Positions 20,931 to 38,148 of a stretch of 64,000 nt of DNA are shown piece by piece. Made by a program: the position numbers and the translations under genes. The stretch is from positions 30,096-94,095 of the IMG/VR virus record IMGVR_UViG_3300043466_001817; one strand, written 5' to 3'. The notes beneath the pieces were generated by a model, which made no database searches, had not been told where the DNA came from, and saw nothing but the letters and a program-made list of their open reading frames with translations. Position 1 is the stretch's first letter. Each line of letters begins with the position of its first letter. This stretch comes from a virus.

Positions 20931-21410
20931 ATGAAAAATTTTAAACAATTTTTAGCAGAGAGAAATTTTAGCCCGACCGACAACGATGAAGTAAGCGATG
21001 TGGATTTCTATGGGGAACACACAAAATTATCCCCTGAAGATTACGGAAATTTTATCAAATCTTTGACTGATAAGTTTGCTACGATAGAAAAAGATTTCAA
21101 TGATTCTCCCCTTTCCCGTGAAGATTATGATTATCTACGTGATATGCAGGGGGGACACCAAAGAGAACTTGATTACCACATAACAAACCCACATATCACG
21201 GATGAACATTTACATCATGCCGTTCCTCATTTGTTGAATCACAATTTCAAGAGTACAGTAGAAAATTTAGATATTCCGTGGTCTGTAATGAAACCCCATG
21301 CAGAGATGGCGATGGTGGCTTTCCCCGACAAGAAGAATATTAGAGCATTCAATGCCAGAGAAGAAATTGAAAAGGGTAAGGCTCCCTCTGTAACCCAAAG
21401 CCATTATTGA
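20931..21410 (+). CDS. Putative internal head protein
   Basis: MKNFKQFLAE. Confidence 0.6.
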   Translation: MKNFKQFLAERNFSPTDNDEVSDVDFYGEHTKLSPEDYGNFIKSLTDKFATIEKDFNDSPLSREDYDYLRDMQGGHQRELDYHITNPHITDEHLHHAVPHLLNHNFKSTVENLDIPWSVMKPHAEMAMVAFPDKKNIRAFNAREEIEKGKAPSVTQSHY

Positions 21411-21411
21411 T

Positions 21412-21633
21412 ATGAAAAATTTTAAACAATTTATCACAGAAAATTATGATGTCTACCTAGACATGCCCCATACCAAAAAATTCAGGGCTCTTATCACAAT
21501 GGTAGACAAGGATGGGAAGGAACACAATTTTCCAATAGGATCAGATGATAATGTCAGAGAGGCAGCACATAAGACAATCAAAGGGCTATCTGACAAAGGA
21601 TTCACCCTTAAGGATGTAGAATACGAATTTTAA
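21412..21633 (+). CDS. Putative internal head protein
   Basis: MKNFKQFITE. Confidence 0.6.
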   Translation: MKNFKQFITENYDVYLDMPHTKKFRALITMVDKDGKEHNFPIGSDDNVREAAHKTIKGLSDKGFTLKDVEYEF

Positions 21634-21649
21634 ACGGATAAATAACTTT

Positions 21650-22093
21650 ATGAACTACCTAACAAATTATTACAAAAATTTATGCGAACAACTAGAAATG
21701 CAACTTGCCCTATTGGAAGCCAAAGTAAAGGATTCCAAGAAGAAGAGCAAGGGCAAGAAACTTGACCCAGTAGGCAAGGAAGATGGTGACATCGACAATG
21801 ATGGTGATGAGGATGAAACTGATGGATACCTAGCCAACCGTCGTAAGGCAATCGGTAAGGCAATGAAAAATAAAAAGAAAGTTGTCAAGGAAGAAACTTC
21901 AACAGGAGTAGAGGGAGACTACGAAGGGGAGATGTCAAAAGGGGAACTCCAATACACAATTCAAAATGCCCAAGAAATTTTAGATCAACTCAAGGATGAT
22001 GATGAACTAGAAGCATGGGTACAGAGCAAGATTACAAAGGCTTCTGACTATATTTCTACAGTAAAAGATTATATGGCTGGTAGGAATAAGTAA
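21650..22093 (+). CDS. Late protein with conserved T4-like modules
   Basis: LDPVGKEDGDIDNDGDEDETDGYLANRRKAI and LEAWVQSKITKASDY; MNYLTNYYKNL N-terminus. Confidence 0.65.
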   Translation: MNYLTNYYKNLCEQLEMQLALLEAKVKDSKKKSKGKKLDPVGKEDGDIDNDGDEDETDGYLANRRKAIGKAMKNKKKVVKEETSTGVEGDYEGEMSKGELQYTIQNAQEILDQLKDDDELEAWVQSKITKASDYISTVKDYMAGRNK

Positions 22094-22099
22094 GGGGGT

Positions 22100-22930
22100 A
22101 ATACGAGGGATAGAGTAAGGAAGATTGGGTAAAAAATATTGAAGAATTTTAAGAAAATTTGGAGTTAGACCCACACTCTCTAACACCCTTTAAACCTCTT
22201 ATAAGCCATCCAGAGCCCGTCCAGCGCACAAAAGGCCCCCGGAGTCATGTCCGAGGGCCTTGTCTCTAATAGCCTTATAGGCGGTCAAGCAATTACTATC
22301 AAGATTTTGACAAATTTTAGAGAATTTTTGACAATATTAGCACAACCCTGTCCAGAGTTCTCCATACCGTCCGCCATATGAGCAATGTAAGGGTTCTTAT
22401 CGACAATATCTTTAATTATTTTGACACTTGGGCTACATGCCGTCCGAGCACCGTCCAGATAACGTCCAGGGCCCGTACCGTCCGAGAATATATTAAAATT
22501 TTTGAGAATATTATAACCTACCTACCTAGGGGCCCTACACCCTGATAGTAGATAAAAAAATTTTAGATTCTTCCAGATCCCGTCCCGCTGGATCCCGTCC
22601 ACAAATTTTCAATAATTCTTGGAACGTCTGATATCTGAACAATTCCCAGACCCACCAGCGCACCGATAACCGTGGCGCTCACGAGTCCGATAACCCCCAC
22701 AGTTCTCCAGAGAACAGCCCAGACGAGTCCGATAACCCCCCATGCCCCATAACTAGATCTACGGTACACACTAGGGCGATAGGGGGTTATCGGTCGCATG
22801 AACAGTCCCCTAGTATACACCACAGGACCCATAAGTCAAGTAATGGCAAGGACTTACGATCCAGTGAAGACGTCCAGTTCTCTGGAGAAATGAATTAAAT
22901 TTAATACCGTCCAGCCCGTCCCGTCCGCGA
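22100..22930. repeat. Non-coding left border of the GC island with short-motif repeats
   Basis: Many CCGTCC/GTCCAG; ACGAGTCCGATAACCCCC twice; CCGATAACC three times plus one inverted; orphan CCTGATAGTAG at 22541. Confidence 0.7.
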
Positions 22931-22995
22931 CTACTATCAGGGAGCGCAAATATTATGCAAAAAATCAAAGTTCCTCTGAGGAACTTTGATAGTAG
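22931..22995. repeat. CTACTATCAGG-palindrome element, copy 1
   Basis: ATCAAAGTTCCTC-T-GAGGAACTTTGAT then AGTAG. Confidence 0.9.
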
Positions 22996-23071
22996 CCGGT
23001 ATGTATACAATAGAACAACCCCCGGGCCTGGCTCTCTCCTTCCAGTCCGGGGGCGTTCCTACGGGGATTAC

Positions 23072-25174
23072 TTACTTGCAGGGCAAGCTGTAGATGGCTT
23101 CCGTCCCCCGCTTGAGGGGCTGGCCCGCCACGATGTCCACATACCGGGAGAGGAACACGCGGCTACCGCTGCGCTTCGCCATCGTCTTGACGAAGGTGTT
23201 CTTGACCTTCGTGAAGGTTCCGCTGTCCACGATGGCATCCTCGTCCTTGACGATCTTCGGGGTCTTGACGAGGAAGTACGCATCGTACCCGTGGAAGATC
23301 TCGTCGTGGACAACGATGCAGCCGTCCTTGTACGCCTCCTTCGCAGCAGCGAACCGGGGAGAGGCGGCGAGGTTCTGATACGAACCCCTCTCCTTCGCGG
23401 CCACGCAGTACTGGTAGAAGAACGATTCGGTCAGGGCGTTGGGGCCAACCATCATCCCGACGAGGCGGGCGTTGAACTTCTCACGCAGGGAGTGCAGCAT
23501 GATGCCGACGATCTCGTTGCCCAAGCACGAAGTCATCTCGCGGGAAGGCATCCGGGTGATCGTTCCCGTGATGTTGTTCTGCACCGTCAGCACCCCGTCC
23601 TGACCGACGCTGTACATGGAGTAGATATCGTCGCCCTTCGCGCCACGGATGCCGATGCCGTTGGGCGAACCGTCCGTGATGTGCATGAGCGTGGGGATCT
23701 GAATGTTGTTGGCCTTGATCCACTCCGCGACGAACTGGGACGCGATGGCGACGGCCTCCACCGTGGGCGTACCGCCCAACCGGATCGCAGCGGGCCGCTT
23801 GTTCTGAACGATGGACTCGTAGAGGTAGGCCATGACCTTCTCGCGCTTGTCCGCACCGTCCCGCGACGAGGCAATGTTGATGAGGCGGGCCTCGTTGAGC
23901 GTGAGGGTGTTCATCTGCTGTCCGACGATCTTCGGCTCAAACATCCTGCTGAAGTCGCTGTAGTACTTCGTGGGGTTCTTCTTGCGCCACTCATCGAACT
24001 TGCCGCCGTGGAACGCGGCCTGATTCACTTCGGTGTAGCCGAACACCTCAAAGGGGATCTTCGCCTTCTCGCAGAACCAAACCAACTGGCAGACCTGAAG
24101 GAAGCAGTCCGACAGAGAGTGCTGCATCGACCCGCTGAAGTCCATGAGGAACACGATGCCGTGGTTCTTGCCGTCCTGCTTGACGATCTTGGAAAGGAAG
24201 ATATCGTCGTGGGTGCGGTACTGGTGGAGGCGGTCAAGGTTCAACTGGCCCGTCTGCTTGGGCCGCTCCTTGCGGATCGCGTCCGCTGCCTTGCGGCGCT
24301 CAAACTGCATGACGAGCTGCCGAACGAACGAATCGGAGTCCTTGACGAACTGGCGGTAGCCGGTCAGATCGACCTGCGGGTACGAGGTCTGCTTCTCAAA
24401 CTCGTCAAAGATGTAATCCGTGGGGACGATGGCAGCGTTGACATCCTCCAACATGGGGATGACAACCGTGGGCGAGTGAACCTTCGGGCCGGACTTCTTG
24501 CCGTGGCCCGCGATGTCAGTCTCCACGATCCCGTCCTGCATGGCTTCGGTGCCGATCGCGTCGGCCTGACCCTGCTGCTGCTCTGCCTTCTCGCGGGCAG
24601 CCTGCATCTGCGGCGACTGGTAGATGATCTTGGCGAGGGCGATGCACTCCTCGAAAGTCTCGCAACCATCGACCGCATCCACGATGGCCTGCTCGTTCTC
24701 GTCCATCGGAACGGTGACGAAACCGGGAACGCCCCACTTGAAGTGGATGTTCACCTTGTTGACGATGTTCGCGTCGGTCAAGTCCATCTTGGCGATGCCG
24801 AACATATCCAAGTCGTTGATCTCCTTGTAGCCCAAGAAGAAGTCGCGGCGGGTGCCGGGGAACTTGTCCTTCATCTTCTTCTCAATGCGGACATCCTCAA
24901 TGACATTGGCGATGCGCTGAAGCAACTCGATGTTGAACCCCTCCGCTTCGGCCTGATCGAACAGCACCTTCGACTGCTCGTAGGGAGTCCACAGGGCGTG
25001 GCTGATCTCATGGGCGACGAGCATGGTCTGCACCGTTTCGGAAACCTTCCAGACGGGCATGACGAGGTGGCGGTTCTCAACATCGAACGACGCGGTGGCG
25101 GCGTTGGCATCGAAGGAGAACGAAATGTTTTCGGAGGCGAGGGCGCGAGCGAAGATGGAGAGAGAAGTGTTCAT
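23072..25174 (-). CDS. CobT-like protein: HExxH peptidase-like N-domain plus vWA domain
   Basis: AHEISHALWT, NVIEDVRIE, MIDAS DFSGSM, GGTP, ITDG; leaderless TTGCAT...TACAAT-N6-ATG. Confidence 0.85.
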   Translation of the reverse strand: MNTSLSIFARALASENISFSFDANAATASFDVENRHLVMPVWKVSETVQTMLVAHEISHALWTPYEQSKVLFDQAEAEGFNIELLQRIANVIEDVRIEKKMKDKFPGTRRDFFLGYKEINDLDMFGIAKMDLTDANIVNKVNIHFKWGVPGFVTVPMDENEQAIVDAVDGCETFEECIALAKIIYQSPQMQAAREKAEQQQGQADAIGTEAMQDGIVETDIAGHGKKSGPKVHSPTVVIPMLEDVNAAIVPTDYIFDEFEKQTSYPQVDLTGYRQFVKDSDSFVRQLVMQFERRKAADAIRKERPKQTGQLNLDRLHQYRTHDDIFLSKIVKQDGKNHGIVFLMDFSGSMQHSLSDCFLQVCQLVWFCEKAKIPFEVFGYTEVNQAAFHGGKFDEWRKKNPTKYYSDFSRMFEPKIVGQQMNTLTLNEARLINIASSRDGADKREKVMAYLYESIVQNKRPAAIRLGGTPTVEAVAIASQFVAEWIKANNIQIPTLMHITDGSPNGIGIRGAKGDDIYSMYSVGQDGVLTVQNNITGTITRMPSREMTSCLGNEIVGIMLHSLREKFNARLVGMMVGPNALTESFFYQYCVAAKERGSYQNLAASPRFAAAKEAYKDGCIVVHDEIFHGYDAYFLVKTPKIVKDEDAIVDSGTFTKVKNTFVKTMAKRSGSRVFLSRYVDIVAGQPLKRGTEAIYSLPCK

Positions 25175-25270
25175 GCGCTCATTGTAGCAGGTCTGTAGGT
25201 GAATGCAACTACTAGGATCGGAAAATGGCAATTCTTTTTTGCGTCCGATAAGGGACCGGCCCCGTCCAGG

Positions 25271-25339
25271 CTACTATCAGGCCGTCAAGCAAATAACACA
25301 AAATTCTCAAAGATTCCTCAGAGGAATCTTTGATAGTAG
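25271..25339. repeat. CTACTATCAGG-palindrome element, copy 2
   Basis: TCAAAGATTCCTC-A-GAGGAATCTTTGA then TAGTAG. Confidence 0.9.
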
Positions 25340-25399
25340 CCCCTGCCTGGAAGATCCCCTGCCCCTTTCGGAGCAGGGGATCTTGTCCTCTGAACAGCA

Positions 25400-25621
25400 T
25401 CAGACCGTGGCCGGTGCGATCAGGGAGGTCAGGTCGTAGACCCCCTTGCTGACCGCGCTCTTGTGATCCTTCAGCACCCAAGTGGGGATGCCCTTCATGT
25501 TGATCGCCTGGGCGACGGCCAGCAGGTCGGCCTTGCTGAAGCTGTCGGTGGGGCGGTTGTGAACCTCCGCGTAGTGCTTGGCGGCGGCGACGAAACGGTT
25601 GCGCTTATTGAGGTACGGCAT
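25400..25621 (-). CDS. Small protein paralogous to the N-terminal domain of the adjacent CobS-like ORF
   Basis: SFSKADLL...IPTWVLKD....SKGVYDL versus SFTRDECL...LPAWLVTD....GRGLYSI; AGGAG RBS. Confidence 0.65.
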   Translation of the reverse strand: MPYLNKRNRFVAAAKHYAEVHNRPTDSFSKADLLAVAQAINMKGIPTWVLKDHKSAVSKGVYDLTSLIAPATV

Positions 25622-25639
25622 TGTCAGAATCTCCTTGTG

Positions 25640-26902
25640 TTAGGCGTTGAGAGCGTAGGAAGTGTCAGTCGGGGCAGCGACAGGCTGCGCCTTCTTGTCC
25701 GCACCCTCCGGCATCGGCAGGATGGTGGGGTCGATCTTGGTGTAGAGGTCGAAGAAAGCCTTCTGCGTGGCGGGGTCGAACCGCGTCAGCGTCAACTTGA
25801 TCGCCTTCTCCTTGTCCGCGAAGATGGCGAACGCCTTGCAGACCTCCTCCAAGCGGCGGGTCGTGATGATGTCATCCAAGCCGCCCTCCTTGAAGCCCAA
25901 GCGGATCGTTTCCGCCCACTTGGTGAGGTACTGGGCGAACTCCTTGTCCTCGCGCCCGTAAGCCTTCATCTTGCGGATGATGATGCGGGCCTCCACGGTG
26001 CGATCCGCGTAGTCCTGCTCAAACCAGTACGAGAAGCGGTCGAGGAAAGCCTCGTTCATCACTCGCGTCCCGACGAAGCGGTCGGACTCGCCCTTGCCCT
26101 TCGTGTTGGCGGTGGCGACGGCGTTGAAGCCGACAGACGGGCGGACATACTGCCCGATCTTCTTGAGGTAGATGCCCTTGCCCTCAAGGACGGGCTGGAG
26201 GCACATCATCCGCTCCGAACCCAAGTCGATCTCGTCCAACAGCAGGATGGCACCCTTCTGCATGGCCTGAACGACGGGGCCGTAGACGAACTTGGTTTCG
26301 CCGTTGACGAGGCGGAAGCCGCCCAACAGATCGTCCTCGTCGGTTTCGGAGGTGATGTTGACGCGGACGCACTCGCGGGCGTTGGCCGCGCAGATCTGCT
26401 CAATCATCGTGGTCTTGCCGTTGCCCGACAGACCCGTGATGTAGATGGGCGCGAACTGCTTGGAGGCGAGGATGGTGGCGATGGTGTCGTAGTGGCCCCA
26501 CGGAACGAAGGTGTCGTTCTTGGAGGGAACGAGCGAGACATCGGACATGGGGAGGACGAGGTTGAAGTTGTTGGTGTTGCTGTTCATGGGCGTAATCTTA
26601 TCACAAGTTTCGGTCGGAGTCAAGTCCACGGAAGGAAGATTCTCAACAATCTTTTGGGGAAATTCGAGGTTCAGGCGGGCACCGGCCACTTCGACTTCGG
26701 GGATGCTGTACAGGCCGCGACCCAGGCGACGAGCCTGATCAGTCACGAGCCAAGCGGGCAGGCACGAGTACGAGACCCGGTGCGTCTGCTTGCAGAGGTT
26801 GAGTGCGGTCAGGCACTCGTCACGGGTGAAAGAGGTGCGAAGCCCGAACGACAGGGCGAGGGATTCGAGGAAGTGCTGCTTACGAAGATCGATGCTGTTC
26901 AT
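25640..26902 (-). CDS. cobS: CobS/MoxR-family AAA+ ATPase (alternative in-frame start at 26587)
   Basis: Walker A GLSGNGKT, Walker B LLLDEID, ATANTKGKG, NEAFLDRF. Confidence 0.9.
   Translation of the reverse strand: MNSIDLRKQHFLESLALSFGLRTSFTRDECLTALNLCKQTHRVSYSCLPAWLVTDQARRLGRGLYSIPEVEVAGARLNLEFPQKIVENLPSVDLTPTETCDKITPMNSNTNNFNLVLPMSDVSLVPSKNDTFVPWGHYDTIATILASKQFAPIYITGLSGNGKTTMIEQICAANARECVRVNITSETDEDDLLGGFRLVNGETKFVYGPVVQAMQKGAILLLDEIDLGSERMMCLQPVLEGKGIYLKKIGQYVRPSVGFNAVATANTKGKGESDRFVGTRVMNEAFLDRFSYWFEQDYADRTVEARIIIRKMKAYGREDKEFAQYLTKWAETIRLGFKEGGLDDIITTRRLEEVCKAFAIFADKEKAIKLTLTRFDPATQKAFFDLYTKIDPTILPMPEGADKKAQPVAAPTDTSYALNA
26595..26623 (-). promoter_or_regulatory. Internal sigma70 promoter for a short leaderless CobS
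   Basis: TTGACT-N17-TAAGAT-N7-ATG(26587). Confidence 0.7.
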
Positions 26903-27015
26903 GAGAACATTGTAATCTATGAGGCGAAGATTGCAAGACCAATCTTCCATTATTCTCAAGATTGTCTCCAGGTCCGATAACCGGCCCCAGAGTCTGGTGC
27001 TGTCCGTTCTGTCCA

Positions 27016-27083
27016 CTACTATCAGGGAAATAATATAATATCTCGGAAAAAATCAAAGACCGCCTGGCGGTCTTTGATAGTAG
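27016..27083. repeat. CTACTATCAGG-palindrome element, copy 3
   Basis: ATCAAAGACCGCC-T-GGCGGTCTTTGAT then AGTAG. Confidence 0.9.
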
Positions 27084-27087
27084 TGGC

Positions 27088-27119
27088 AAATAAAAACCCC
27101 CAGCCTAGCAACTGGGGGT
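27088..27119 (-). terminator. Rho-independent terminator
   Basis: ACCCCCAG..CTGGGGGT followed by a T-rich run on the minus strand. Confidence 0.75.
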
Positions 27120-27158
27120 CGGAGGAACATCCTCCTTGAAGAAAGAAACGAACCTGAA

Positions 27159-27503
27159 TCAGCCCTTCAGGTACTCCGAAGCCGGGCCACTCTTGCAGCA
27201 GCCGGTACCATCGTTGTAGTAGGACTTCTTGCAGTCCTTGTTCTCGTTGTGGCACTTCTCCCACAGAACATCAACCTCGCGGTGCAGTTGCTCACGGGAG
27301 CCTTCCATCTCGCGCTTGAGTTCCGCAATCTTCTCGTTGCAGGAACGACCGCAGGCAAGCACCTCGTCAATTACATACCGCTCGCTGGCCTCCGTGTAGG
27401 TACGGATGCTGCGAATCTTGTTGTCGATGTAGTTCTTGACGATCAGGCCGCAAGCAAGCACACCGAAGGCGACGGCAAAGATCAAAGCGTAGTTCTCGTT
27501 CAT
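27159..27503 (-). CDS. Membrane-anchored coiled-coil protein
   Basis: N-terminal hydrophobic helix; TTGACA/TATAAT promoter and AGGAG. Confidence 0.65.
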   Translation of the reverse strand: MNENYALIFAVAFGVLACGLIVKNYIDNKIRSIRTYTEASERYVIDEVLACGRSCNEKIAELKREMEGSREQLHREVDVLWEKCHNENKDCKKSYYNDGTGCCKSGPASEYLKG

Positions 27504-27562
27504 CTGAATCTCCTTGTTGTTGGTGGTATTATACCACCTGGTTGTGGGTTGTCAAGTCTGAA

Positions 27563-27646
27563 TAGGACGGGTGAGATTCGAACTCACGGTGCATAAAGCG
27601 GGCAATTATAAGTCGCCTGCTGCTCTCCATCGCAGCACGCCGTCCT
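27563..27646 (-). tRNA. Atypical tRNA-Ile(UAU) with extended variable region
   Basis: GGCGA-CTTATAA-TTGCC; acceptor AGGACGG/CCGTCCT; T-arm GTGAG-TTCGAAT-CTCAC. Confidence 0.72.
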
Positions 27647-27793
27647 GTGTGAAGCCTTTTTACGGATGCTCCTTTGTCCGTGCATTCGCAGAATGCCTCT
27701 GTGCGGTTTTATGACTACCGCCAAAACTTATAATATAATCTGCATTGTGTTTCTCAATAGTGCATTGTAGCACCTCTTTGTTCTGTGTCAAGG

Positions 27794-27867
27794 CGTTTCC
27801 GGGGGGACTCGAACCCTCAACCTGCCGCTTAGAAGGCGGCTGCTCTATCCGGTTGAGCTACGGAAAC
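27794..27867 (-). tRNA. tRNA-Arg(UCU)
   Basis: GCCGC-CTTCTAA-GCGGC. Confidence 0.93.
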
Positions 27868-27960
27868 ATTCGGAAGGAGTACTCTACGGTCTAGGGAATC
27901 CCATTTTCCGACTTTTCGTCCTTCCTTATTGGATGAACTTGAAGAAGTCCATCTCGTTAG

Positions 27961-28045
27961 TGGGATTGGTGGGACTTGAACCCACAAGACTTTTGAGGTC
28001 GGCAGATTTTGAGTCTGCTGCGTATGCCGATTCCGCCACAATCCC
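27961..28045 (-). tRNA. tRNA-Leu(CAA)
   Basis: GCAGA-CTCAAAA-TCTGC, long variable arm; own TTGACA-N17-TATAAT promoter. Confidence 0.93.
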
Positions 28046-28060
28046 GATGCGCCCATTATA

Positions 28061-28336
28061 TCACACTATGGGCGGGTTGTCAACCCTATCTTCTAGGGAG
28101 AATTTTTCTTCAATTTCCTCGAAGAATTCCGAATTGGCTCGGACCACCTGCTCATGGAGCCGGTCAACGTTGAGGCATTGGGCTGCGTTGTCCACCTCAT
28201 CGAAGTACTGATTGATCAGTTCCTTCGGCGGGTTGCCGTTGCCATGGAGAATGTGTTCCATGATGCGGTCTGCGACAATGACCACGCGGTCATAAGCCTG
28301 GAGCGAGCTGATGTAGTGCTGTTCTGAAATCTTCAT
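28061..28336 (-). CDS. Hypothetical protein
   Basis: AGGAGG RBS after tRNA-Lys. Confidence 0.6.
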   Translation of the reverse strand: MKISEQHYISSLQAYDRVVIVADRIMEHILHGNGNPPKELINQYFDEVDNAAQCLNVDRLHEQVVRANSEFFEEIEEKFSLEDRVDNPPIV

Positions 28337-28350
28337 AGTGTCCTCCTGAA

Positions 28351-28423
28351 TGCCTCCGGTGGGGTTCGAACCCACGACCAATAGATTAAAAGTCTACTGC
28401 GCTACCAACTGCGCTACAGAGGC
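28351..28423 (-). tRNA. tRNA-Lys(UUU)
   Basis: TAGA-CTTTTAA-TCTA; own TTGACT-N17-TATAAT promoter. Confidence 0.93.
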
Positions 28424-28462
28424 GAGATGCCCATTATATCCGATGGGCGCGGTGAAGTCAAG

Positions 28463-28858
28463 TCAGTCCTTGTCGTTGTTTCCCAGTTCCTCTTCGATGT
28501 CGTTGATGTACTCCCGCCGGTCGTGGGGGAAGTGCTTGCGCTCCAACTCGCCCGCGAACTCGTCGTAGGTCATGGACATCATGTCGCCCAAGAGCATCAT
28601 GAACGCCGCGTCACCTGCCGTGACATCCTTCGGACGCTCGTTGCGCTCCTTCGCATCCGCGAGTTCCTGGGTCGCGTAGGCCATCGCAGCGGAGGCGACG
28701 AGGCGGAGCTTCTGATCCTTGAAGAAGGTCGGGTTCCGCATCACCAGTTCCACGAGGCTGTAGATCACCTCGTGGATGCTGGGCTTGAACTGCTCCATCA
28801 TGGGGTGCGGCTCGTTGTTGTCGAAGAAGTTGCTGAAGTTGTTCGTCGGGTCAGGCAT
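28463..28858 (-). CDS. Hypothetical early protein
   Basis: GC3-biased ORF. Confidence 0.65.
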   Translation of the reverse strand: MPDPTNNFSNFFDNNEPHPMMEQFKPSIHEVIYSLVELVMRNPTFFKDQKLRLVASAAMAYATQELADAKERNERPKDVTAGDAAFMMLLGDMMSMTYDEFAGELERKHFPHDRREYINDIEEELGNNDKD

Positions 28859-29081
28859 TGTTGGCTTCCTTGATCTGTGCGTGAAGGTTGAGGATGAACT
28901 CGTACTCGTCGTCGGTGGTCATGTCGGGGTCGGCCATCTTGGTCAGCATCACATACGCTGACCCCATTCGCATCACCTTCTCCGGGTCGGTGTCCCAGTC
29001 CGGGTTAGCGAAGATGAAGTCGGAGATGCTGTTCAGCAGGTCGCTGACATTGCAGGTGGTGGGCTTCTTGGGCTTGTTCAT
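28851..29081 (-). CDS. Hypothetical early protein, leaderless
   Basis: TTGACA-N17-TACAAT-N6-ATG. Confidence 0.65.
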   Translation of the reverse strand: MNKPKKPTTCNVSDLLNSISDFIFANPDWDTDPEKVMRMGSAYVMLTKMADPDMTTDDEYEFILNLHAQIKEANNA

Positions 29082-29099
29082 GGTGGTATTGTACCGAAG

Positions 29100-29429
29100 T
29101 CAGAGGGGGCTGTCAAGCAGGGAATAGTCGATATTCGAAACAGAAACCTCGAGGCCCCAATGCTCCAAAGTTTTCTTCATATCGTCCACGAAAGTCAACT
29201 GGAGCATCGGGTCGCAGTCGAAGTTGAGACAGGCGGTGATCATGCAGAACTCGTTCGCAATGTCGAACTGGAAGGTGGGGTTCTGTCCACGGGTCACGGC
29301 GTACCTATCGTCCGCAAAGTTCCATGCATGAAGGTAAGCGTTCGACATCTCCTTGAGGCGCATGGTAGCCCAAGACCGGCTCCGTGCCGTCTTGTGCATA
29401 ACGACGGTGATGTTGCTGTAGAGTGCCAT
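29100..29429 (-). CDS. Hypothetical early protein
   Basis: Coupled (TGATG) to upstream gene. Confidence 0.6.
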   Translation of the reverse strand: MALYSNITVVMHKTARSRSWATMRLKEMSNAYLHAWNFADDRYAVTRGQNPTFQFDIANEFCMITACLNFDCDPMLQLTFVDDMKKTLEHWGLEVSVSNIDYSLLDSPL

Positions 29430-29665
29430 CAGTCGAAGTCCTCGTCATCCACGAAGTCAGATGCGTCGAAGTCGCTCATCTCCGGGATGTCATCGTCGTG
29501 TTCGGTGTAGTCATCGTCCGCGTCGTAGAGGCCGATCATGCGGCGAGCCTCCGCTTCGCTGTAGCCTTCGGCCATCAACTCTTCGATGGCCTCCTCGTCG
29601 GTCATCTCCTCAATGGCGTGGTCGTACTGATCGTCGGTGTTGTCGAAGTCGTTGTCAATGTCCAT
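29429..29665 (-). CDS. Extremely acidic small protein, leaderless
   Basis: TTGCAT-N16-TATACT-N6-ATG; D/E-dominated. Confidence 0.7.
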   Translation of the reverse strand: MDIDNDFDNTDDQYDHAIEEMTDEEAIEELMAEGYSEAEARRMIGLYDADDDYTEHDDDIPEMSDFDASDFVDDEDFD

Positions 29666-29759
29666 GCGCGCAGTATAGCCTATACCGGCGGGGATGCAAG
29701 CGGTAGCATCCAAGAAAACGAAATATATTTTGCGTCCCATAACGTCCAGGTGGTCCGGG

Positions 29760-29822
29760 CTACTATCAGGCGGCGGCCGGTCCTATAAGAAATCAAAAAT
29801 GCCTGGGCATTTTTGATAGTAG
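29760..29822. repeat. CTACTATCAGG-palindrome element, copy 4
   Basis: ATCAAAAATGCC-TG-GGCATTTTTGAT then AGTAG. Confidence 0.9.
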
Positions 29823-29963
29823 TCAAATAAAATGCCCCACCTTGAAGAAGGTGGGGCGTGGGAGCTACCGTCCAAACTCCCGCGTTTCTCCGCACAGCGC
29901 TGTACGGATCTTTTTTATGCCGCTTGTGGCCACACAGGGCATCCGGTTTTGATGGTTTGGGCG

Positions 29964-30197
29964 TTAGTCCTTGAACTCGCATCCCGTCACGACATAGCGA
30001 AGTCCGCCAAGCGTGAAGGTCAGGGTGAACGCGCAGAAGTACATCACGCCAGCGCAGAAGAGTCCGACTGCGTTGAGCAGCCACGAAATGTCGTTGGGGG
30101 CGAGGAATGCGTAGGTAAAGATCATCGGGAGGAACCACGCCGCAATCAGGACGAGGGCACCGATGAAACGGTCGATGTAGGAGGTGGTGAGGTTCAT
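29964..30197 (-). CDS. Small two-helix membrane protein, leaderless
   Basis: TTGACA-N17-TACAAT-N6-ATG; two hydrophobic segments. Confidence 0.65.
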   Translation of the reverse strand: MNLTTSYIDRFIGALVLIAAWFLPMIFTYAFLAPNDISWLLNAVGLFCAGVMYFCAFTLTFTLGGLRYVVTGCEFKD

Positions 30198-30228
30198 GGG
30201 AGTATTGTACCTGGGTTGCAGGCGAATG

Positions 30229-30528
30229 TCAAGCCCAGTTCAGCATCTTCTCCGTCTTGGGCGAGAATCCCATGATCCCGGTGATCTTGTCCTCACCGAT
30301 CAGGATCCAGTCCTTCTTGGTGATGTCGAAGGCGCAGATGTAGCCTTCGGTGGTGTGACGGAGGCCCTTCGGCAGATTGCCGCCGAGGTGACGGATGAAG
30401 GTCGCGTCCGTAGTGACCTCACGGGCAGCGGGAGTGCCGTCCTTCTTCGTGAAAGTGACCATCACGGTGTCGTTGTTGGAGAGCGAAACGCGGAGGACGG
30501 TAGCGAGAGGCAGGTCGGTGGTGTTCAT
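30229..30528 (-). CDS. SH3/WYL-like beta-barrel protein (DUF2693-like), leaderless
   Basis: VTFTKKDGT.A.R..T...AFDITKKDW. Confidence 0.6.
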   Translation of the reverse strand: MNTTDLPLATVLRVSLSNNDTVMVTFTKKDGTPAAREVTTDATFIRHLGGNLPKGLRHTTEGYICAFDITKKDWILIGEDKITGIMGFSPKTEKMLNWA

Positions 30529-30638
30529 GTGAGTATTGTAGCCGGTTGGGGGTGAAAGTCAAGAGGGAAAGAAAGATTTTTTGGTGGTTTCGGGAGGGGG
30601 CGGTAACTCAACCCCCTCCCATCATGCACCACCATGAT

Positions 30639-31040
30639 TTACTGGATCAGGTCCTGCGCGGTGGGGACGCCCTGCTTCTCGAACTTCTCCGCTTCGGCCT
30701 GGAGGATCTCGAAGAACAACTTCGGGCACTTCATCTGCAAGGCGGTGATGTTCTCACCGTTGTCCCCCGCGAGGATCGCGTCCCCGACGAGCGGCTGCTT
30801 GCAGATGATGGAGGCGCGGGTGTTGAAGCGCGGGTTGTCGATGCACAGACCCTCCTCATCGATCCACATCATCGAATCCTCGATGTGGTTCAGCGGGACG
30901 CTGATCGGCTGCACGAGGCGGCACGACATGATCGGGTACATCGACTCCAACGGGTTGTCGGCGTTCAGTTCCACGACGCGGACGGGCTGGTTGATGTCGG
31001 CGGGGATCAGGATGGCGGGGATGGTGGTGATGTTCGACAC
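30639..31040 (-). CDS. DUF3846-like protein
   Basis: LIPAD...MWIDEEGL...FNTRAS...LVGDAILAG; GTG start with AGGAG. Confidence 0.65.
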   Translation of the reverse strand: MSNITTIPAILIPADINQPVRVVELNADNPLESMYPIMSCRLVQPISVPLNHIEDSMMWIDEEGLCIDNPRFNTRASIICKQPLVGDAILAGDNGENITALQMKCPKLFFEILQAEAEKFEKQGVPTAQDLIQ

Positions 31041-31187
31041 GGTGGTGACTCCTGCCCCTGTGGGGCAACTGGGTGATACGCGAATTGTAGCAGGTTGGCT
31101 GGCGATTGCAAGTAGGTAGGTCGCGATTCGAAAGATTTATTTCTTTCCTCGTACCGGCCACAGGGCTCGAGCCCGTCCAGGTGGGCG

Positions 31188-31245
31188 CTACTATCAGGCG
31201 GCGTCCAATAAAATCAGAGGGCCCTAGAGGGCCCTCTGATAGTAG
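31188..31245. repeat. CTACTATCAGG-palindrome element, copy 5
   Basis: ATCAGAGGGCCCT-AG-AGGGCCCTCTGAT then AGTAG. Confidence 0.9.
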
Positions 31246-31396
31246 CCCGAGGGGCTGGCTCAAACTTCTCGAGCCAGTTCCCTCTTTCCCTCCCTCCGCG
31301 CCATCCGAGGGTCGCGGCTCTTCTTGCCCCAAGTCTTGGGGCGGAGCCGGATGCCTTCACGGAAAGCGTCGTGGACGAACTTGCCTGGGCGGTGCT

Positions 31397-31642
31397 TCAT
31401 CGTGTCTCCTCTAGGTCGATCAGGGCGGAATCAATCTTGATCTGAAGGCGGCGAATCGTGTCGCGCTCCGCCTTCGCTTCAGCGTAGAACGCATCATGAG
31501 CTGCGGTTTCCCGGTAGGTGTTCATTTCACGCAGCACATCCACCATAGCGGTGAACATGAAACGGGAAATAATTTCCATTTCGCGCTTCGACAATTCCAC
31601 CTGCATGGCGGGCTTGCGAATTGGCTTGAGGGTGGTGATCAT
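31397..31642 (-). CDS. Hypothetical early protein, leaderless
   Basis: TTGACA-N17-TAAGAT-N6-ATG. Confidence 0.65.
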   Translation of the reverse strand: MITTLKPIRKPAMQVELSKREMEIISRFMFTAMVDVLREMNTYRETAAHDAFYAEAKAERDTIRRLQIKIDSALIDLEETR

Positions 31643-31691
31643 GGTGGTATCTTACCTTCCTGTCCTGTCCCTGTCAATAGGGTAGGGCGGA

Positions 31692-32312
31692 TTACTCCGC
31701 CTTTCCCCTGATGATGATCCACAGAAGCGCCTGCATGTCGGCGGCGGGCATGTTCCACGAATCGGCCATGAGCCGAACGGCAGCGGCGATGGCACGGTAC
31801 TCAACGGCGCTGGGCGCATCCTTCGGCTGGCCAGCGTACTTCGACTTCGGCCCGTAGGTGAGGCCGGCAGCGCGGCACATCCAAATGTCGATCACGACCG
31901 CATCGGGGTCGCCGCCGATGGCACGGGCGAACGCGTTCGTCTTCGGCCCGCGCAGGCCGTCGAAGCCTTCGCGCTGGCAACGGTCCGCAGCGTCCAGCGC
32001 CGAACGCAGGCCCGCAGGGCGCTGGCCCATAGCGTACTCGGCGGCCTTGCGCTTGTTGAGCGCCCAAGTAACGCGGGGCGAGAATGCCGACACGACGCTA
32101 GCGGACACTTCGAGCGTCCACGACGGCGCGATGGTGCAGAGCGATTCCGCGAACGCGTTCGCGTCGCAGTACCATGTGCCCGCCCGCTTGATGTCGGCGG
32201 GCGTGGCCGACGCCAGCAGGGTACGGAAGCGGCCTTCGGCCTCAACGCGGACGGCGGACATGCGGGCGAGGGTAGCGGCGGACGGCTGACGGGTGGTGGT
32301 GGTGGTGATCAT
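31692..32312 (-). CDS. DUF7178-like protein (HhH glycosylase-like fold), leaderless
   Basis: GTWY..AN, SAFSPR..W..N, GPKTNAF, VVIDIWM, MQALLW. Confidence 0.6.
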   Translation of the reverse strand: MITTTTTRQPSAATLARMSAVRVEAEGRFRTLLASATPADIKRAGTWYCDANAFAESLCTIAPSWTLEVSASVVSAFSPRVTWALNKRKAAEYAMGQRPAGLRSALDAADRCQREGFDGLRGPKTNAFARAIGGDPDAVVIDIWMCRAAGLTYGPKSKYAGQPKDAPSAVEYRAIAAAVRLMADSWNMPAADMQALLWIIIRGKAE

Positions 32313-32422
32313 GCGGTAATTGTAACCGAATGGCTACAGAATGCAATAGGGTAGCCCGCTGAAACGCAAAGAATAATTATTCATCGCGGTGCATAGTTAT
32401 GCAGGGCGTCCAGGTCGTCCGG

Positions 32423-32475
32423 CTACTATCAGGCCGTCCAATAAAATCAAGATCGCCGGGCGATCTTGATAGTAG
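32423..32475. repeat. CTACTATCAGG-palindrome element, copy 6
   Basis: ATCAAGATCGCC-G-GGCGATCTTGAT then AGTAG. Confidence 0.9.
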
Positions 32476-32547
32476 CCCACAAACAACCTAGCCCCGAGCT
32501 AATCGGGGCAGGGACGAATCCTCTTCGGTTGTAAGAGCACCACCTCT

Positions 32548-32814
32548 TTAGTCTGTGGCCGGTGCGAGTGCCGCCTCCTGTCCGACGCGGATTCCTGCGC
32601 GGAATGCGTGGATCAGTTCCAGCAGTTCCCGCTTGCTGCGGTAGCCGGGGAAGATGGCGATGCAGGCTCCGTGGGGGCCGACGAGTTGCTGTAGTTGCCA
32701 TCCGCCGTATGCGCCCTGGAGGTAGTACGCACCTGGCGTGGCAGCGGTCGCCCCGACGAGTTGGTTCAGGACGCGGGTGGCGGCTTCAAGGTCGCGGATC
32801 GTGGTGTGCTTCAT
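32548..32814 (-). CDS. Conserved phage early protein
   Basis: TIRDLE...LN...YYLQGAYGGWQL...GYRSKREL. Confidence 0.6.
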   Translation of the reverse strand: MKHTTIRDLEAATRVLNQLVGATAATPGAYYLQGAYGGWQLQQLVGPHGACIAIFPGYRSKRELLELIHAFRAGIRVGQEAALAPATD

Positions 32815-32903
32815 AGTGTGAACCTTACTGTATCGGGGGGCGGGAATCAAGGGGGCAGGAAAGATTTTTTACTTTCTTTCCTGCCCCCCACCGGGGGCTT
32901 GGG

Positions 32904-33308
32904 TTAGATGGTCACGGAGCGGAGGGGGCGCGTCGGGGCGCGGTCGGCCTGCTTCGAGGCCGTGTCGCGTCCGTCGATCCAGTTAGCCGCAGCGAGGAGG
33001 CCGTAGGCGACGGCCCGCATCTCGTTCGCGGTGCAGGAGCAGCCCGCCCGCTCATCGAAGGCACCGAAGAGGTTGAACGACGCCATCCGGTGGTTGGGCG
33101 ACGAGAGGACGCGGACGGCGTAGGGGCCGACCGGGATCATGAACGCCGCAGCCGACTCGTGGTCGAAGCGGATGCGGGTGTAGTTGCTGCGGTTGCTGAT
33201 CGTGCAGTCGCTGATGCGGTTCTCGCGCTCGTTGCTGCGGAGGTTGTCAACGGAGCGCGACGGGCTGAACACGATGTCGGTGGCGCAGGAGAAGGTGGTG
33301 GTGGTCAT
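32904..33308 (-). CDS. Hypothetical early protein
   Basis: AGGAG-N8-ATG. Confidence 0.6.
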   Translation of the reverse strand: MTTTTFSCATDIVFSPSRSVDNLRSNERENRISDCTISNRSNYTRIRFDHESAAAFMIPVGPYAVRVLSSPNHRMASFNLFGAFDERAGCSCTANEMRAVAYGLLAAANWIDGRDTASKQADRAPTRPLRSVTI

Positions 33309-33340
33309 GGTAGATGCTCCTAGTGAGAGGGGTGCGATTG

Positions 33341-33532
33341 TCAAGCGGTAACGCAAGATTCTGCGCGAAACTTTGCCTTGCTCCAGCGCGGGTCGGCATC
33401 GTACCCGTTGGTGAGGAGCAGGTAGCGGAACTCCTCAATGGCCTGGGCCTTGGAGTCAGCGCGAACCGTGGTGGAGTGAATGATGCCGCCGAGGGTGCAG
33501 GTGACGCGGAAGAGTTGGGTGGTGCTGTTCAT
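33341..33532 (-). CDS. Small early protein, leaderless
   Basis: TTGACT-N16-TACCAT-N6-ATG. Confidence 0.6.
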   Translation of the reverse strand: MNSTTQLFRVTCTLGGIIHSTTVRADSKAQAIEEFRYLLLTNGYDADPRWSKAKFRAESCVTA

Positions 33533-33678
33533 GCGTGTATGGTAGCGAATCTACAATGGAAGTCAATACCCTTTCTCAAATATTTCTCGAGCGCCCCCAG
33601 GCGACCGATAACCTACCGGCAGAAATATTTGAGAAAGGGTATTGACTTCGATAGCAAACTTGCTACCATTAGCGCATG
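33530..33678. promoter_or_regulatory. Mirror-symmetric divergent promoter pair with a 29-bp perfect inverted repeat
   Basis: 33559-33587 is the reverse complement of 33621-33649; -10 boxes and ATGs are equidistant from the axis. Confidence 0.9.
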
Positions 33679-33894
33679 GACACCACCCACACCGATTCGC
33701 CCGACAACTTCCCCTGCCAGTGCCACCTGTCGAAGTACGCCTACGAGGACGCGCTCTGCCCCGAGTGCGAGGAGCGGGAGCGGCAGCTCGAAGCCCAGGT
33801 GGAGGCCGAAGCGCTGCGCGCCGAGGCCATGGAGGAGAGGGACTGGGACGCCGATAACGATTGGCTCGCCTCAGCGGGCTGGGGCGAGATGTGA
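33676..33894 (+). CDS. Small acidic protein with CxC..CxxC, leaderless
   Basis: TTGACT-N16-TACCAT-N6-ATG. Confidence 0.65.
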   Translation: MDTTHTDSPDNFPCQCHLSKYAYEDALCPECEERERQLEAQVEAEALRAEAMEERDWDADNDWLASAGWGEM

Positions 33895-33965
33895 GCCCCA
33901 AATAAATCTTCAAACTTCCACCGGCCACCCTTGACATGGGGTGGTCGGTGTGCTAATATGCGCGC

Positions 33966-34133
33966 ATGATCACCACCGACGGTAACGATGAAACCCCCCG
34001 CAAGTACACCGATGGCGAGTACCGGCTGCGGCCCGAGTACCAGGAGGAGCAACACAGCGCCTGTTGGGAGGACCGCTACGGGCCCGACTACGATGACTGC
34101 GACGAGGGCCCTGACTGGGAGGGCGATGACTGA
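33966..34133 (+). CDS. 55-aa acidic protein, leaderless (not in ORF track)
   Basis: TTGACA-N17-TAATAT-N6-ATG; MITTDGNDETPRKY...DWEGDD. Confidence 0.65.
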   Translation: MITTDGNDETPRKYTDGEYRLRPEYQEEQHSACWEDRYGPDYDDCDEGPDWEGDD

Positions 34134-34206
34134 GCCCAGGAAATAAATCGTCAAATTTCCACCGCTACCCCTTGCAACCGAGGGGGCGGTGTGCTATCAT
34201 ACGCGT

Positions 34207-34353: not shown

Positions 34354-34363
34354 CCCCCCAGGC

Positions 34364-34401
34364 ACTCAGAGGCCCCCGCAAGGGGGCCTCTGAGTTTATT
34401 T
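34364..34401 (+). terminator. Rho-independent terminator
   Basis: ACTCAGAGGCCCCC-GCAA-GGGGGCCTCTGAGT then TTATTT. Confidence 0.85.
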
Positions 34402-38135: not shown

Positions 38136-38148
38136 AAAAAGTTCCAAA

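Follow-up and report, generated by a model that had tools for sequence, protein, structure and literature searches.

The window, which is the whole stretch of 64,000 nucleotides analysed here, comes from an uncultured, myovirus-like phage that is AT-rich apart from a 12-kb GC-rich early island. This island is the only place in which the intergenic element described below, termed E, is found, both in the 94-kb record that contains the window and in five other records. E consists of an inverted pair of boxes (CTACTATCA...TGATAGTAG), with a perfect 12-13-bp hairpin with a 1-2-nt centre abutting one box in each of the six copies in the window. The window contains 13 occurrences of CTACTATCA, where shuffled sequences predict 0.31, and 12 of these make up six inverted pairs exactly where a preliminary description of this DNA had placed six co-oriented copies. 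The remaining occurrence is a lone box; beyond it come a GC palindrome with imperfect arms, a stretch rich in AT and, at about 22440-22490, four copies of GGACG. All six copies share one orientation, which is without exception that of the genes.

Organization of the early units

Read along the coding (-) strand, every early unit has the same order: a gene end, an RNA-type terminator (T1), E, a promoter and an ATG. The gap between T1 and E is 6-20 nt, and the 5' box of E is fused to a perfect hairpin of 10-15 bp. A spacer and the 3' box come next, and between the 3' box and the sigma70-type promoter lie a phased GGAC array and then AT-rich sequence; the ATG that follows is mostly leaderless. 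E always has a T1 hairpin on one side and a sigma70-type promoter on the other, and the units between copies, 1.2-2.7 kb in length, are flanked by directly repeated modules with identical 9-11-bp ends. The separate terminator-like hairpin noted previously ahead of each copy was recovered at all six as T1. The promoters reported after copies 2-6 are also present, although their restriction to those copies does not hold, as copy 1 has one too.

32491-32509 (-): T1 before copy 6; ordinary terminator, GC stem, 5-nt loop, tail TAGGTTGTTTG
32423-32475 (-): E copy 6; 5' box 32467-32475, 3' box 32423-32431
32446-32470 (-): hairpin of copy 6; perfect, 12 bp, 1-nt centre, tail TTTATTGGACGG
32312-32422 (-): module after copy 6; GGAC repeats at 32420 and 32411, then AT-rich tract
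within 32312-32422 (-): promoter after copy 6; -35 TTGCAT (32346), -10 TACAAT (ends 32319)
32312 (-): DUF7178 gene start; leaderless ATG
31255-31277 (-): T1 before copy 5; CTGGCTC...GAGCCAG, no T tail (coordinates derived from the sequence)
31188-31245 (-): E copy 5; box at each end, hairpin 31213-31240 (13 bp), tail TTTATTGGACG
31084-31187 (-): module after copy 5; GGAC (31178), AT-rich tract, TTGCAA-16-TACAAT promoter (31111-31084)
29834-29857 (-): T1 before copy 4; tetraloop, tail ATTTTATTTG
29760-29822 (-): E copy 4; hairpin 29792-29817 (12 bp), tail TTCTTATAGGAC
29665-29759 (-): module after copy 4; GGAC-N5-GGACGTTATGGGACGCAAAA, AT-rich tract, TTGCAT...TATACT promoter, leaderless ATG at 29665
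27095-27120 (-): T1 before copy 3; G-U pairs present, tail TTTATTTGCC
27016-27083 (-): E copy 3; hairpin 27052-27078 (13 bp), T6 tail, AT-rich spacer
26902-27015 (-): module after copy 3; GGACA repeats, GTTATCGGAC, TTGCAA-16-TACAAT promoter (26936-26909)
26902 (-): CobS-like AAA_5 gene start; leaderless ATG
25349-25388 (-): T1 before copy 2; 17 pairs, GAAA-type loop, no T tail (coordinates derived)
25271-25339 (-): E copy 2, CobS/CobT junction; hairpin 25307-25333 (13 bp), delayed T-tract (GAATTTTGTG)
25174-25270 (-): module after copy 2; GGACG, CTTATCGGACGCAAAAAA, TTGCAT...TACAAT promoter
25174 (-): CobT-like gene start; leaderless ATG
23019-23053 (-): T1 before copy 1; conserved loop GGAAGGAGAGAGCC, tail TTGTTCTATTG
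22931-22995 (-): E copy 1, junction of CobT and a small membrane protein; hairpin 22964-22990 (13 bp), T6 tail
22799-22930 (-): module after copy 1; GGACG x3, AT-rich tract, TTGACT-16-TATACT promoter (22839-22812)
22799 (-): small hydrophobic protein gene start; ATG, 12-nt leader
22543-22551 (-): lone terminal 5' box (CTACTATCA on the - strand), downstream end of the island

The DUF3846 gene after copy 5 probably starts at a GTG near 31040, so its mRNA would not be leaderless. The GGAC motif is enriched 3' of the 3' box (2.05 per 50 nt, compared with 0.21 in shuffles) and in one orientation, GTCC occurring there at 0.05 per 50 nt; repeat spacing peaks at 5 and 9-10 nt. Promoters following E in the window mostly carry TTGCAA or TTGCAT as their -35; where an internal promoter of the island has the consensus TTGACA, both E and a GGAC array are missing. 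The T1 loop GGAAGGAGAGAGCC recurs 27 times in related loci.

Hairpin covariation, folding and T-tracts

The arms of E differ from copy to copy, with exact complementarity maintained. In a set of 14 distinct, gap-free copies, 100% of cells pair, and 8 of the 12 pairs change on both sides and none on one side only, a pattern matched in 0 of 500 shuffles; the earlier proposal that structure is conserved, and not arm sequence, is thereby upheld. The 57 unique copies contain 716 Watson-Crick pairs, no G-U pair and no bulge, with an apparent loop of 0-2 nt in 35, whereas the T1 hairpins alongside have 45 G-U among 560 pairs (8%), 20 bulges and tetraloops. At one orthologous junction, in five relatives, the stem is imperfect and contains a tandem GA/GA internal loop.

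As single-stranded DNA, the window copies give fold z-scores of -3.5 to -7.5, and the inner hairpin alone forms. In RNA folds at 37 C, a 9-bp helix formed by the two boxes closes the minimum-free-energy structure of 47 of the 57 copies, a pairing worth about 4.6 kcal/mol, and this helix is gone at 65 C in 42. Both of the alternative folds anticipated in the preliminary description thus exist. At least five Ts lie within 8 nt of the stem in 38 of the 57 copies; the other 19 have no T-tract, nor does any compact copy. A terminator scan scores all six window copies as terminator-like on the - strand. A T-rich tail is carried by T1 or E at 48 of 55 junctions and by E alone at 24. The complementary distribution of T-tails between T1 and E is a trend only (Fisher p = 0.15). 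The base of the E stem adjoining the T-tract is A/U-rich (AUCA/UGAU), which makes E suboptimal as a terminator.

Conservation among relatives and similarity to known elements

About 90 copies, in which the core 8-mers are kept, are distributed across 27 related viral contigs. In an unbiased sample of relatives, found through their CobT protein (48-63% amino acid identity), 15 of 16 loci have the core 8-mers at each of the two CobT junctions, and the boxes persist while spacers and stems diverge. Absence of the boxes from relatives, or a match to a known Rfam family, had been suggested beforehand as grounds for abandoning the proposal; the boxes are conserved, and Rfam returned no match. Gene order and E positions are syntenic among relatives with CobS/CobT identities of 50-79%, and stems at orthologous junctions show vertical descent with paired changes. 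The 8-mer is inverted in E, occurs singly at the island end, in relatives always 410-485 nt past the last E, and forms two to three direct repeats of GATAGTAG without any hairpin in one lineage (L092). At the innermost box positions (A/C and T/G), variation in one box is not matched by covariation in the other, and box variants are in part genome-specific. E was absent from the 185,579 prokaryote species genomes searched.

The closest known kind of element is the PeSL (promoter-early stem-loop) regulatory cassette of T4-type phages (Arbiol et al. 2010, PMC2839356; Comeau et al. 2014, PMC4122927), a likeness already suggested in the preliminary description. In each case a large myovirus carries, within the early region that host polymerase transcribes, a composite intergenic module running from a stem-loop terminator through an AT-rich tract and sigma70-type -35/-10 to the start codon of the next small gene, and in each the module is repeated in one orientation between many consecutive genes, giving transcriptionally isolated cassettes. 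Unlike PeSLs, E has a stem-loop bracketed by invariant inverted 8-9-mers, stems that are perfect palindromes free to vary in sequence, a separate ordinary terminator ahead of it and a phased GGAC array before the promoter; moreover, most mRNAs after E are leaderless and without a Shine-Dalgarno sequence, and its positions and gene order are conserved, not indel-associated. With REP/BIME elements and their RAYTs, and with IS200/IS605 ends, E shares a hairpin beside a short conserved GTAG/CTAC motif. However, its GTAG lies 3' of the hairpin on its strand, not 5', only 5-7 copies occur, in one phage region, prokaryote genomes lack it, and no Y1 transposase gene accompanies it in the five records. 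E is neither REP nor, as considered below, attC, nor CRISPR, in agreement with the first reading, and is a real, covarying element specific to this phage clade.

Proposed function and alternative explanations

The explanation that we tentatively prefer, with slightly under an even chance of being correct, is that E is a conserved boundary and control module whose boxes are putative double-stranded DNA sites and whose palindrome often acts as a back-up terminator; the anatomy, conservation, covariation, synteny and island restriction of E are observed, and protein binding, insulation and termination are inferred. E would be a boundary element of the early region transcribed by host RNA polymerase in this clade, filling the short gap that separates the T1 of one unit from the control sequences ahead of the following early promoter. 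The 8-mers (CTACTATC/GATAGTAG) may be recognition sites for one clade-conserved trans-acting factor, be it phage-encoded, virion-delivered or a host protein. No such factor was found among the island proteins, which have no DNA-binding Pfam match, the sole lead being a weak, sub-threshold match to WYL_2. With two inverted sites bracketing the palindrome, a bound or bridged, possibly extruded structure would begin 6-20 nt past T1 and form an insulator or roadblock that stops polymerases entering the next unit. Helically phased GGAC repeats and a UP-like, AT-rich tract stand ahead of the promoter downstream, whose output E may additionally control, either activating it or shutting it off early. 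Roughly two copies in three have a palindrome and T-tract that would form a further, back-up intrinsic terminator for sense-strand transcripts. Several features favour the boxes being read at the DNA level, as was originally suggested: inverted, lone and direct-repeat usage would yield different RNA sequences, the innermost box positions do not covary, the stems are perfectly Watson-Crick paired and E lies downstream of an RNA terminator. Between the 3' box and the -35 lie anything from 20 to 107 nt, an unusual spread for a classical operator or activator. This counts against the explanation, as do the failure to find a binding factor, the A/U-rich stem base, the copies without a T-tract, the imperfect stem in five relatives and the T-tail complementarity being a trend only.

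A plain tandem intrinsic terminator behind T1, requiring no dedicated factor and with boxes conserved through RNA-fold clamping or copy homogenisation, is unlikely, even though E lies downstream of genes in strict gene orientation, 38 of 57 copies have a sense-strand hairpin and T-tract, the scan flags all six window copies, E supplies the sole T-rich tail at 24 of 55 junctions, the boxes close the RNA fold and PeSL stem-loops terminate effectively in experiments (PMC2839356). Simple tandem terminators had been named in the preliminary description as grounds against its own proposal. Against a plain terminator, the 3' box is transcribed only once the T-tract has been passed and so cannot help termination, one third of copies and all compact ones lack the T-tract, and the stem, A/U-rich at its base and often complementary to its centre, contains no G-U or bulge, compared with 8% G-U in the adjacent real terminators. 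The uncoupled innermost box positions, the lone boxes and the hairpin-free L092 repeats also disfavour it, and homogenisation fails to explain box identity across genomes whose proteins have diverged by about 50%. That E acts in read-through transcripts, as an element for RNA processing or stability, is highly improbable. The box-closed, bulged hairpin would here be a target of RNase III or a phage endoribonuclease, or a protective 3' structure, separating early mRNAs or timing their decay. T7 offers a precedent in early mRNAs cut by RNase III at intergenic hairpins, and T4 another in RegB, which cleaves early transcripts at a fixed motif (see also the review PMC3014915); together with the 37 C fold, these speak for this reading. 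E is, however, rarely transcribed because it lies behind T1, its stems lack G-U and pair to the very centre, which is unexpected of an RNA-selected helix, and the closing helix is mostly abolished at 65 C; the lack of box covariation and the L092 lineage tell against a folded RNA target as well.

Recombination for cassette exchange, homologous as in PeSLs or site-specific as in integron attC, is very unlikely. It holds that shared boxes and a folded palindrome allow cassettes to be excised, inserted or shuffled, and draws on the PeSL precedent (PMC2839356, PMC4122927), the direct modules with identical ends around every unit, a few gains and losses of E (in L065 none between c5 and c4 and two compact copies flanking a 55-aa ORF; in L059 two side by side) and the differing genome organization of relatives beyond the terminal lone box. 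E and attC are alike in measuring 50-100 bp and closing each gene cassette on its 3' side, with all copies co-oriented, conserved outer inverted repeats, a centre conserved in structure but not sequence, and asymmetry between the two sides, including an asymmetric bulge. Nevertheless, E has neither the attC R-box consensus (RYYYAAC/GTTRRRY) nor extrahelical bases, each cassette has its own promoter, and E is missing from prokaryote genomes. The cassette shuffling proposed earlier is unsupported because E positions and gene order are retained between relatives whose CobT is only 50-63% identical, with vertically inherited stems, and a dedicated recombinase found no support, no tyrosine recombinase (Phage_integrase) or Y1 HUH (Y1_Tnp) gene being detected in the five records (44-75% complete); of that interpretation, which is supported in part, the DNA-level reading of the boxes is favoured and the PeSL likeness in architecture holds. 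A DNA-metabolism signal, whether a replication origin, a hotspot of recombination-dependent replication or a pause or nick site for DNA entry, is extremely doubtful. The perfect, cruciform-prone palindromes with AT-rich bases and the iteron-like phased GGAC repeats adjoining an AT-rich tract might load replication or recombination proteins or stall entry, and the multiple copies here recall T4, whose early and middle regions contain several origins. Yet six copies, not one or two, are tied to every terminator-promoter junction, the genes around E yielded no initiator, nickase or HUH protein, no sequence feature links E to genome ends, and a T4-type baseplate gene weighs weakly against T5-style entry; no evidence was found for the stepwise-entry or nick signal raised previously.

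Organisation of the early island

The GC content of the early island at 22-34 kb is 52-62%, compared with a window mean of about 35-40%, and its coding strand is the - strand, which carries genes for CobS-like (AAA_5), CobT-like, DUF7178 and DUF3846 proteins together with four tRNAs for A/U-ending codons. The CTACTATCA 9-mer occurs 13 times in the window against an expectation of 0.31, and 12 of these occurrences form the six inverted pairs that delimit the intergenic elements (E), at exactly the coordinates claimed in the preliminary description. The window corresponds to bases 30096-94095 of a 94-kb IMG/VR virus record, all paired boxes of which fall inside the 22931-32475 stretch.

Copies of E and the GGAC arrays of the island (window coordinates)
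22931-22995, - strand: E copy 1; GGAC array at 22840-22930, - strand
25271-25339, - strand: E copy 2; GGAC array at 25209-25270, - strand
27016-27083, - strand: E copy 3; GGAC array at 26937-27015, - strand
29760-29822, - strand: E copy 4; GGAC array at 29700-29759, - strand
31188-31245, - strand: E copy 5; GGAC array at 31112-31187, - strand
32423-32475, - strand: E copy 6; GGAC array at 32347-32422, - strand
22543-22551: lone box, the thirteenth CTACTATCA

The outer boxes of E read CTACTATC and GATAGTAG. On the coding strand, the end of a gene is followed by an ordinary terminator hairpin (T1) and, after 6-20 nt, by CTACT-ATCA(R), the hairpin of E, TGAT (usually then TTTTATTGGACG), a spacer and CC-TGATAGTAG; the ATCA after CTACT is already the start of the hairpin, a perfect stem of 12-13 bp with a 1-2-nt centre. 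GGAC repeats come next, often in the form GGAC-N5-GGACGTTAT(G/C)GGACGCAAAA, followed by an AT-rich tract, a -35 and a -10 hexamer 16-17 nt apart and, about 6 nt further on, the ATG. The end of the island is always closed by a lone 5' box with GGAC repeats, 410-485 nt past the last E. The last island gene (22563-22832, - strand) encodes a small hydrophobic protein, probably of the membrane. In all relatives it makes up the final cassette, with the last E on one side and the lone terminal box on the other. The CobS-like (AAA_5) and CobT-like gene pair is also expressed from the early island (23072-27016, - strand).

A promoter scan found 29 sites against 7.1 expected. In the six window copies and related copies, the hairpin of E is followed 20-107 nt downstream by a promoter, either a -35/-10 pair or one of the extended -10 type. 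The earlier claim that copies 2-6 precede a sigma70 promoter holds for those copies but not as a limit, since copy 1 also precedes one (6/6). Most downstream genes start 4-7 nt past the -10 and are leaderless, without a Shine-Dalgarno sequence; in Deinococcus-Thermus, leaderless starts of this kind, close behind the -10, are typical (PMC12340547). Two promoter classes can be distinguished in the island (26595-31677, - strand). Those of the internal class overlap coding sequence, have a -35 of consensus type (TTGACA) and lack both a GGAC array and an E, whereas the promoters next downstream of an E (post-E promoters) have a -35 that is mostly TTGCAA or TTGCAT in the window, preceded by GGAC and AT-rich regions, the latter an AAAA(T/A)-rich tract between the array and the -35. 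The GGAC repeats, often TTAYNGGAC, are strand-specific, ten-fold enriched and located upstream of the AT-rich tract at every post-E promoter: GGAC occurs 2.05 times per 50 nt past the 3' box against 0.21 in shuffles, and the opposite orientation, GTCC, 0.05 times. Their spacing peaks at 5 and 9-10 nt, corresponding to a half and a full helical turn, and the repeats are probably binding sites of a predicted second factor. At the upstream end of the island, a divergent promoter region (33530-33678) contains GGTTATCGG and shares a TTATCGG motif with the post-E arrays; no E was found in this region before the first promoter of the island.

Hairpin structure and conservation in relatives

The arms of the palindrome had been described as differing between copies yet remaining complementary, and this is borne out by 14 distinct gap-free copies, in which 100% of cells pair, with two-sided changes in 8 of 12 pairs and one-sided changes in none. 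The covariation score is 0.66 compared with 0.19 in shuffles, none of 500 of which reached the former value. Across 57 unique copies, 716 Watson-Crick pairs are formed with no G-U pair, bulge or mismatch, and in 35 of the copies the apparent loop is 0-2 nt, such that even the central bases, which are unable to pair in an RNA hairpin, are complementary. An exception is the CobS-CobT junction of five relatives, where a conserved stem contains a tandem GA/GA internal loop. The T1 hairpins, located a few bases upstream of E, are of the kind usual for RNA terminators: 45 of their 560 pairs are G-U, bulges or internal loops number 20, and most of the loops are tetraloops. The T1 hairpin behind the CobT-like gene (23019-23053, - strand) has a purine loop, GGAAGGAGAGAGCC, that is strictly kept in all relatives as its stem covaries (27 occurrences in related loci), and may represent a separate conserved RNA motif at the 3' end of CobT. 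The only fold of E as single-stranded DNA is the inner hairpin (z-scores between -3.5 and -7.5 across the window copies); as RNA, the boxes close the structure in 47/57 copies at 37 C and 15/57 at 65 C; both of the alternative folds proposed earlier are thus real possibilities.

An exact-box scan of IMG/VR returned 67 stretches, a sample biased by its selection on the boxes. Approximately 40 of these, on roughly 20 contigs, are genuine copies whose hairpin is flush with the 5' box, and the remainder are single chance matches without a hairpin. Because of this bias, relatives were also fetched via the CobT-like protein (16 loci at 48-63% amino acid identity, plus one at 99%), and 15 of the 16 carry CTACTATC...GATAGTAG at both the CobS-CobT junction and the junction of CobT with the next gene. 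Whole-record scans of five relatives confined the paired boxes to one island of 5-11 kb each, with isolated single boxes elsewhere, of which about 1.5 per record are estimated to arise by chance. The core 8-mers are unchanged across approximately 90 copies from 27 contigs.

Next to this core, the innermost position of each box is variable, being A or C in the 5' box and T or G in the 3' box, with the 5' variant covarying with the 3' arm of its own hairpin (TCC...GGA) and not with the 3' box. Variants are partly specific to a genome: among the related loci, every 3' box of L087, L090 and L096 is GGATAGTAG, every copy of L093 is the C/G variant, and every copy of L097 is compact (CTACTATCA-hairpin-TGATAGTTG, without spacer or T-tract). 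Additional palindromes lie within the spacer of L086 and L088, and one of these palindromes is flush with the 3' box. In the L092 lineage, E is replaced by direct repeats of GATAGTAG, two or three in number and separated by 12-28 bp; they lie between T1 and the following promoter, and neither a 5' box nor a hairpin is present.

Direct repeats replacing E (coordinates of locus L092)
2200-2270: direct GATAGTAG repeats
6320-6365: direct GATAGTAG repeats

The 8-mer therefore occurs in either orientation, paired or single, which is the behaviour of a double-stranded DNA recognition site, as in RNA a change of orientation would give a different sequence.

Within each contig, every copy of E is co-oriented with the genes, and clustering of sense-strand ORFs from 24 loci gave an identical gene order throughout (c-numbers denote protein clusters): E, DUF7178, E, c12/22/24-c13-c5, E, c4-c11/36-c8-c1-(tRNAs)-c23/38, E, CobS-c9, E, CobT, E, small membrane protein, lone terminal box. 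Orthologous junctions have related stems that differ through paired substitutions, as illustrated by the arms at the post-CobT junction (AAAGTTCCTC, AAATTTCCTC, AAAGATCCTC, GGGATCCTC and AAAATTCCTT), and few gains or losses of E separate the relatives. On these sequence comparisons, the pattern is that of punctuation marks inherited vertically, not of cassette exchange. In one related record (G002, 126,277 bp; loci L081/L082), the final 134 nt recur at 32-165 of the contig start, inside the early island, which suggests that this genome is circularly permuted or terminally redundant, with the assembly broken within an E.

Comparison with known systems and possible roles

Early regions decide whether the host is taken over by a phage, yet to our knowledge only a handful of model phages have had the cis-regulatory grammar of these regions described. 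The closest described kind is the promoter-early stem-loop (PeSL), a composite terminator-promoter cassette of T4-type phages (PMC2839356, PMC4122927). In common with PeSLs, all six window copies and related copies have a stem-loop (terminator) just upstream of an early promoter in a common intergenic space, and an AT-rich region precedes a sigma70-like -35/-10 promoter and then the start codon, the whole being repeated between early genes. Unlike PeSLs, the Shine-Dalgarno sequence before the start codon is absent, and the syntenic gene order and E positions of the 24 loci have no link to indels, hyperplastic regions or gene replacements. Not described for PeSLs are the unvarying inverted boxes, the perfect palindromes of variable sequence, the further, separate terminator upstream and the phased GGAC arrays.

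The preliminary description did not recognise E as attC or REP, and this is supported. The attC core sites (R''/R', RYYYAAC / GTTRRRY) are absent, CTACTATC / GATAGTAG standing in their place, and the perfect pairing of E differs from the imperfect attC stem with its extrahelical bases. REP/RAYT and IS200/IS605 elements occur as many dispersed copies, unlike the island-only copies of E. A host REP-like repeat was rejected, as a 23-base pattern gave eight matches in 185,579 prokaryote species genomes, about the estimated chance number and none with a hairpin. A MITE was rejected given the lack of target-site duplications, the unrelated interiors of the copies and their orthologous positions, and an integron-like or IS200-like mechanism given synteny and the lack of a recombinase in five incomplete records. 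Rfam covariance models (E <= 1) applied to 21000-35000 returned tRNAs and sub-threshold chance matches only, with no family for the element; CTACTATCA and TGATAGTAG were found in full-text literature only within primers and unrelated sequences. When the island was compared at the nucleotide level with 50,697 phage records, the sole match was a tRNA-Arg of Thermus phage phiLo, whose neighbourhood has no comparable architecture, and host inference via a protein atlas returned viral DUF7178 clusters only.

The main rival explanation is that E is a plain tandem terminator, which would make it an ordinary finding. A hairpin with five or more T among the 8 nt that follow its stem is present in 38/57 unique copies, including five of the six in the window, all six of which were flagged on the - strand by a terminator scan; T1 or E has a T-rich tail at 48/55 junctions, and E alone at 24, with a negative association between the two tails that is a trend only (p = 0.15). 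However, the stem base beside the T-tract is A/U-rich, the T-tract is missing from one third of copies (19) and it overlaps a recurring TTATNGGAC motif, and we consider this explanation unlikely. Less likely than a tandem terminator are three further readings. The recombination site for cassette shuffling suggested previously is improbable: gene order and E positions are shared by 24 loci, stems change in pairs at orthologous junctions, and neither a tyrosine recombinase (IntI, PF00589) nor a Y1 HUH transposase (PF01797) was found in five records, although for the former absence is unproven as these records are 44-75% complete. A role as an RNA processing element is, if anything, less probable again, and one as a replication or entry signal the least probable of all.

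We favour, with a confidence that falls a little short of even, a reading of E as part of a conserved boundary module of the early region, with three proposed parts. The 8-mers would be double-stranded DNA sites bound by one conserved factor; their invariance, as neighbouring proteins fall to 50% identity, predicts a specific reader protein, and searches of the island ORFs with Pfam and PHROGs found no DNA-binding domain or protein. Two inverted sites and a perfect palindrome directly past the T1 tail would insulate neighbouring early units and may also co-regulate the GGAC-array promoters, with the palindrome and T-tract providing the back-up terminator in most copies. A more far-reaching proposal, possible but doubtful, is that the box-palindrome is a new kind of phage cis-element that acts as DNA. 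A protein specific to the clade would bind the 8-mer together with an extruded or bridged perfect palindrome and would build, at each boundary between early units, a structural insulator or switch, with perfect palindromy kept by hairpin-templated correction. Such an element could, for example, act as a roadblock enforcing termination at weak T1 tails, or turn early promoters off (or on) in concert.

An uncultured clade presents a cleanly defined and strongly conserved grammar of terminator, box-palindrome-box, phased GGAC array and leaderless promoter. Its interest is moderate, lying mainly in the predicted reader and in the perfect DNA-type palindromes beside RNA-type terminators, a natural test of DNA-level versus RNA-level hairpin function. 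As a compact insulator/promoter part, the module could find use in organisms with leaderless mRNAs.

Other features of the phage genome

Possible T4-type traits of this phage are a gp6-like baseplate domain and the CobS-like gene, whose best cultured-phage matches are T4-like pelagiphages and cyanophages (approximately 49-59% identity); most large ORFs have no family match. An adenylosuccinate-synthetase-like gene matches Pfam Adenylsucc_synt and the PHROG family '2-aminooxy adenylosuccinate synthetase', presumably of PurZ type, and has an IMPDH/GMP-reductase-like gene in its vicinity.

Purine-related genes (window coordinates)
37140-38147, - strand: adenylosuccinate-synthetase-like gene
41240-42277, + strand: IMPDH/GMP-reductase-like gene

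A remodelling of purine pools by the phage, or its use of 2-aminoadenine (Z-genome), is possible. ARAGORN made eleven calls in the window, comprising a tmRNA-like gene at 6645-7047 (- strand) with the tag peptide VVNKPLQKLIAAPMAMAA and ten tRNAs. The four island tRNAs read AUA, AGA, UUG and AAA, which fits a supply of codons needed by the AT-rich rest of the genome.
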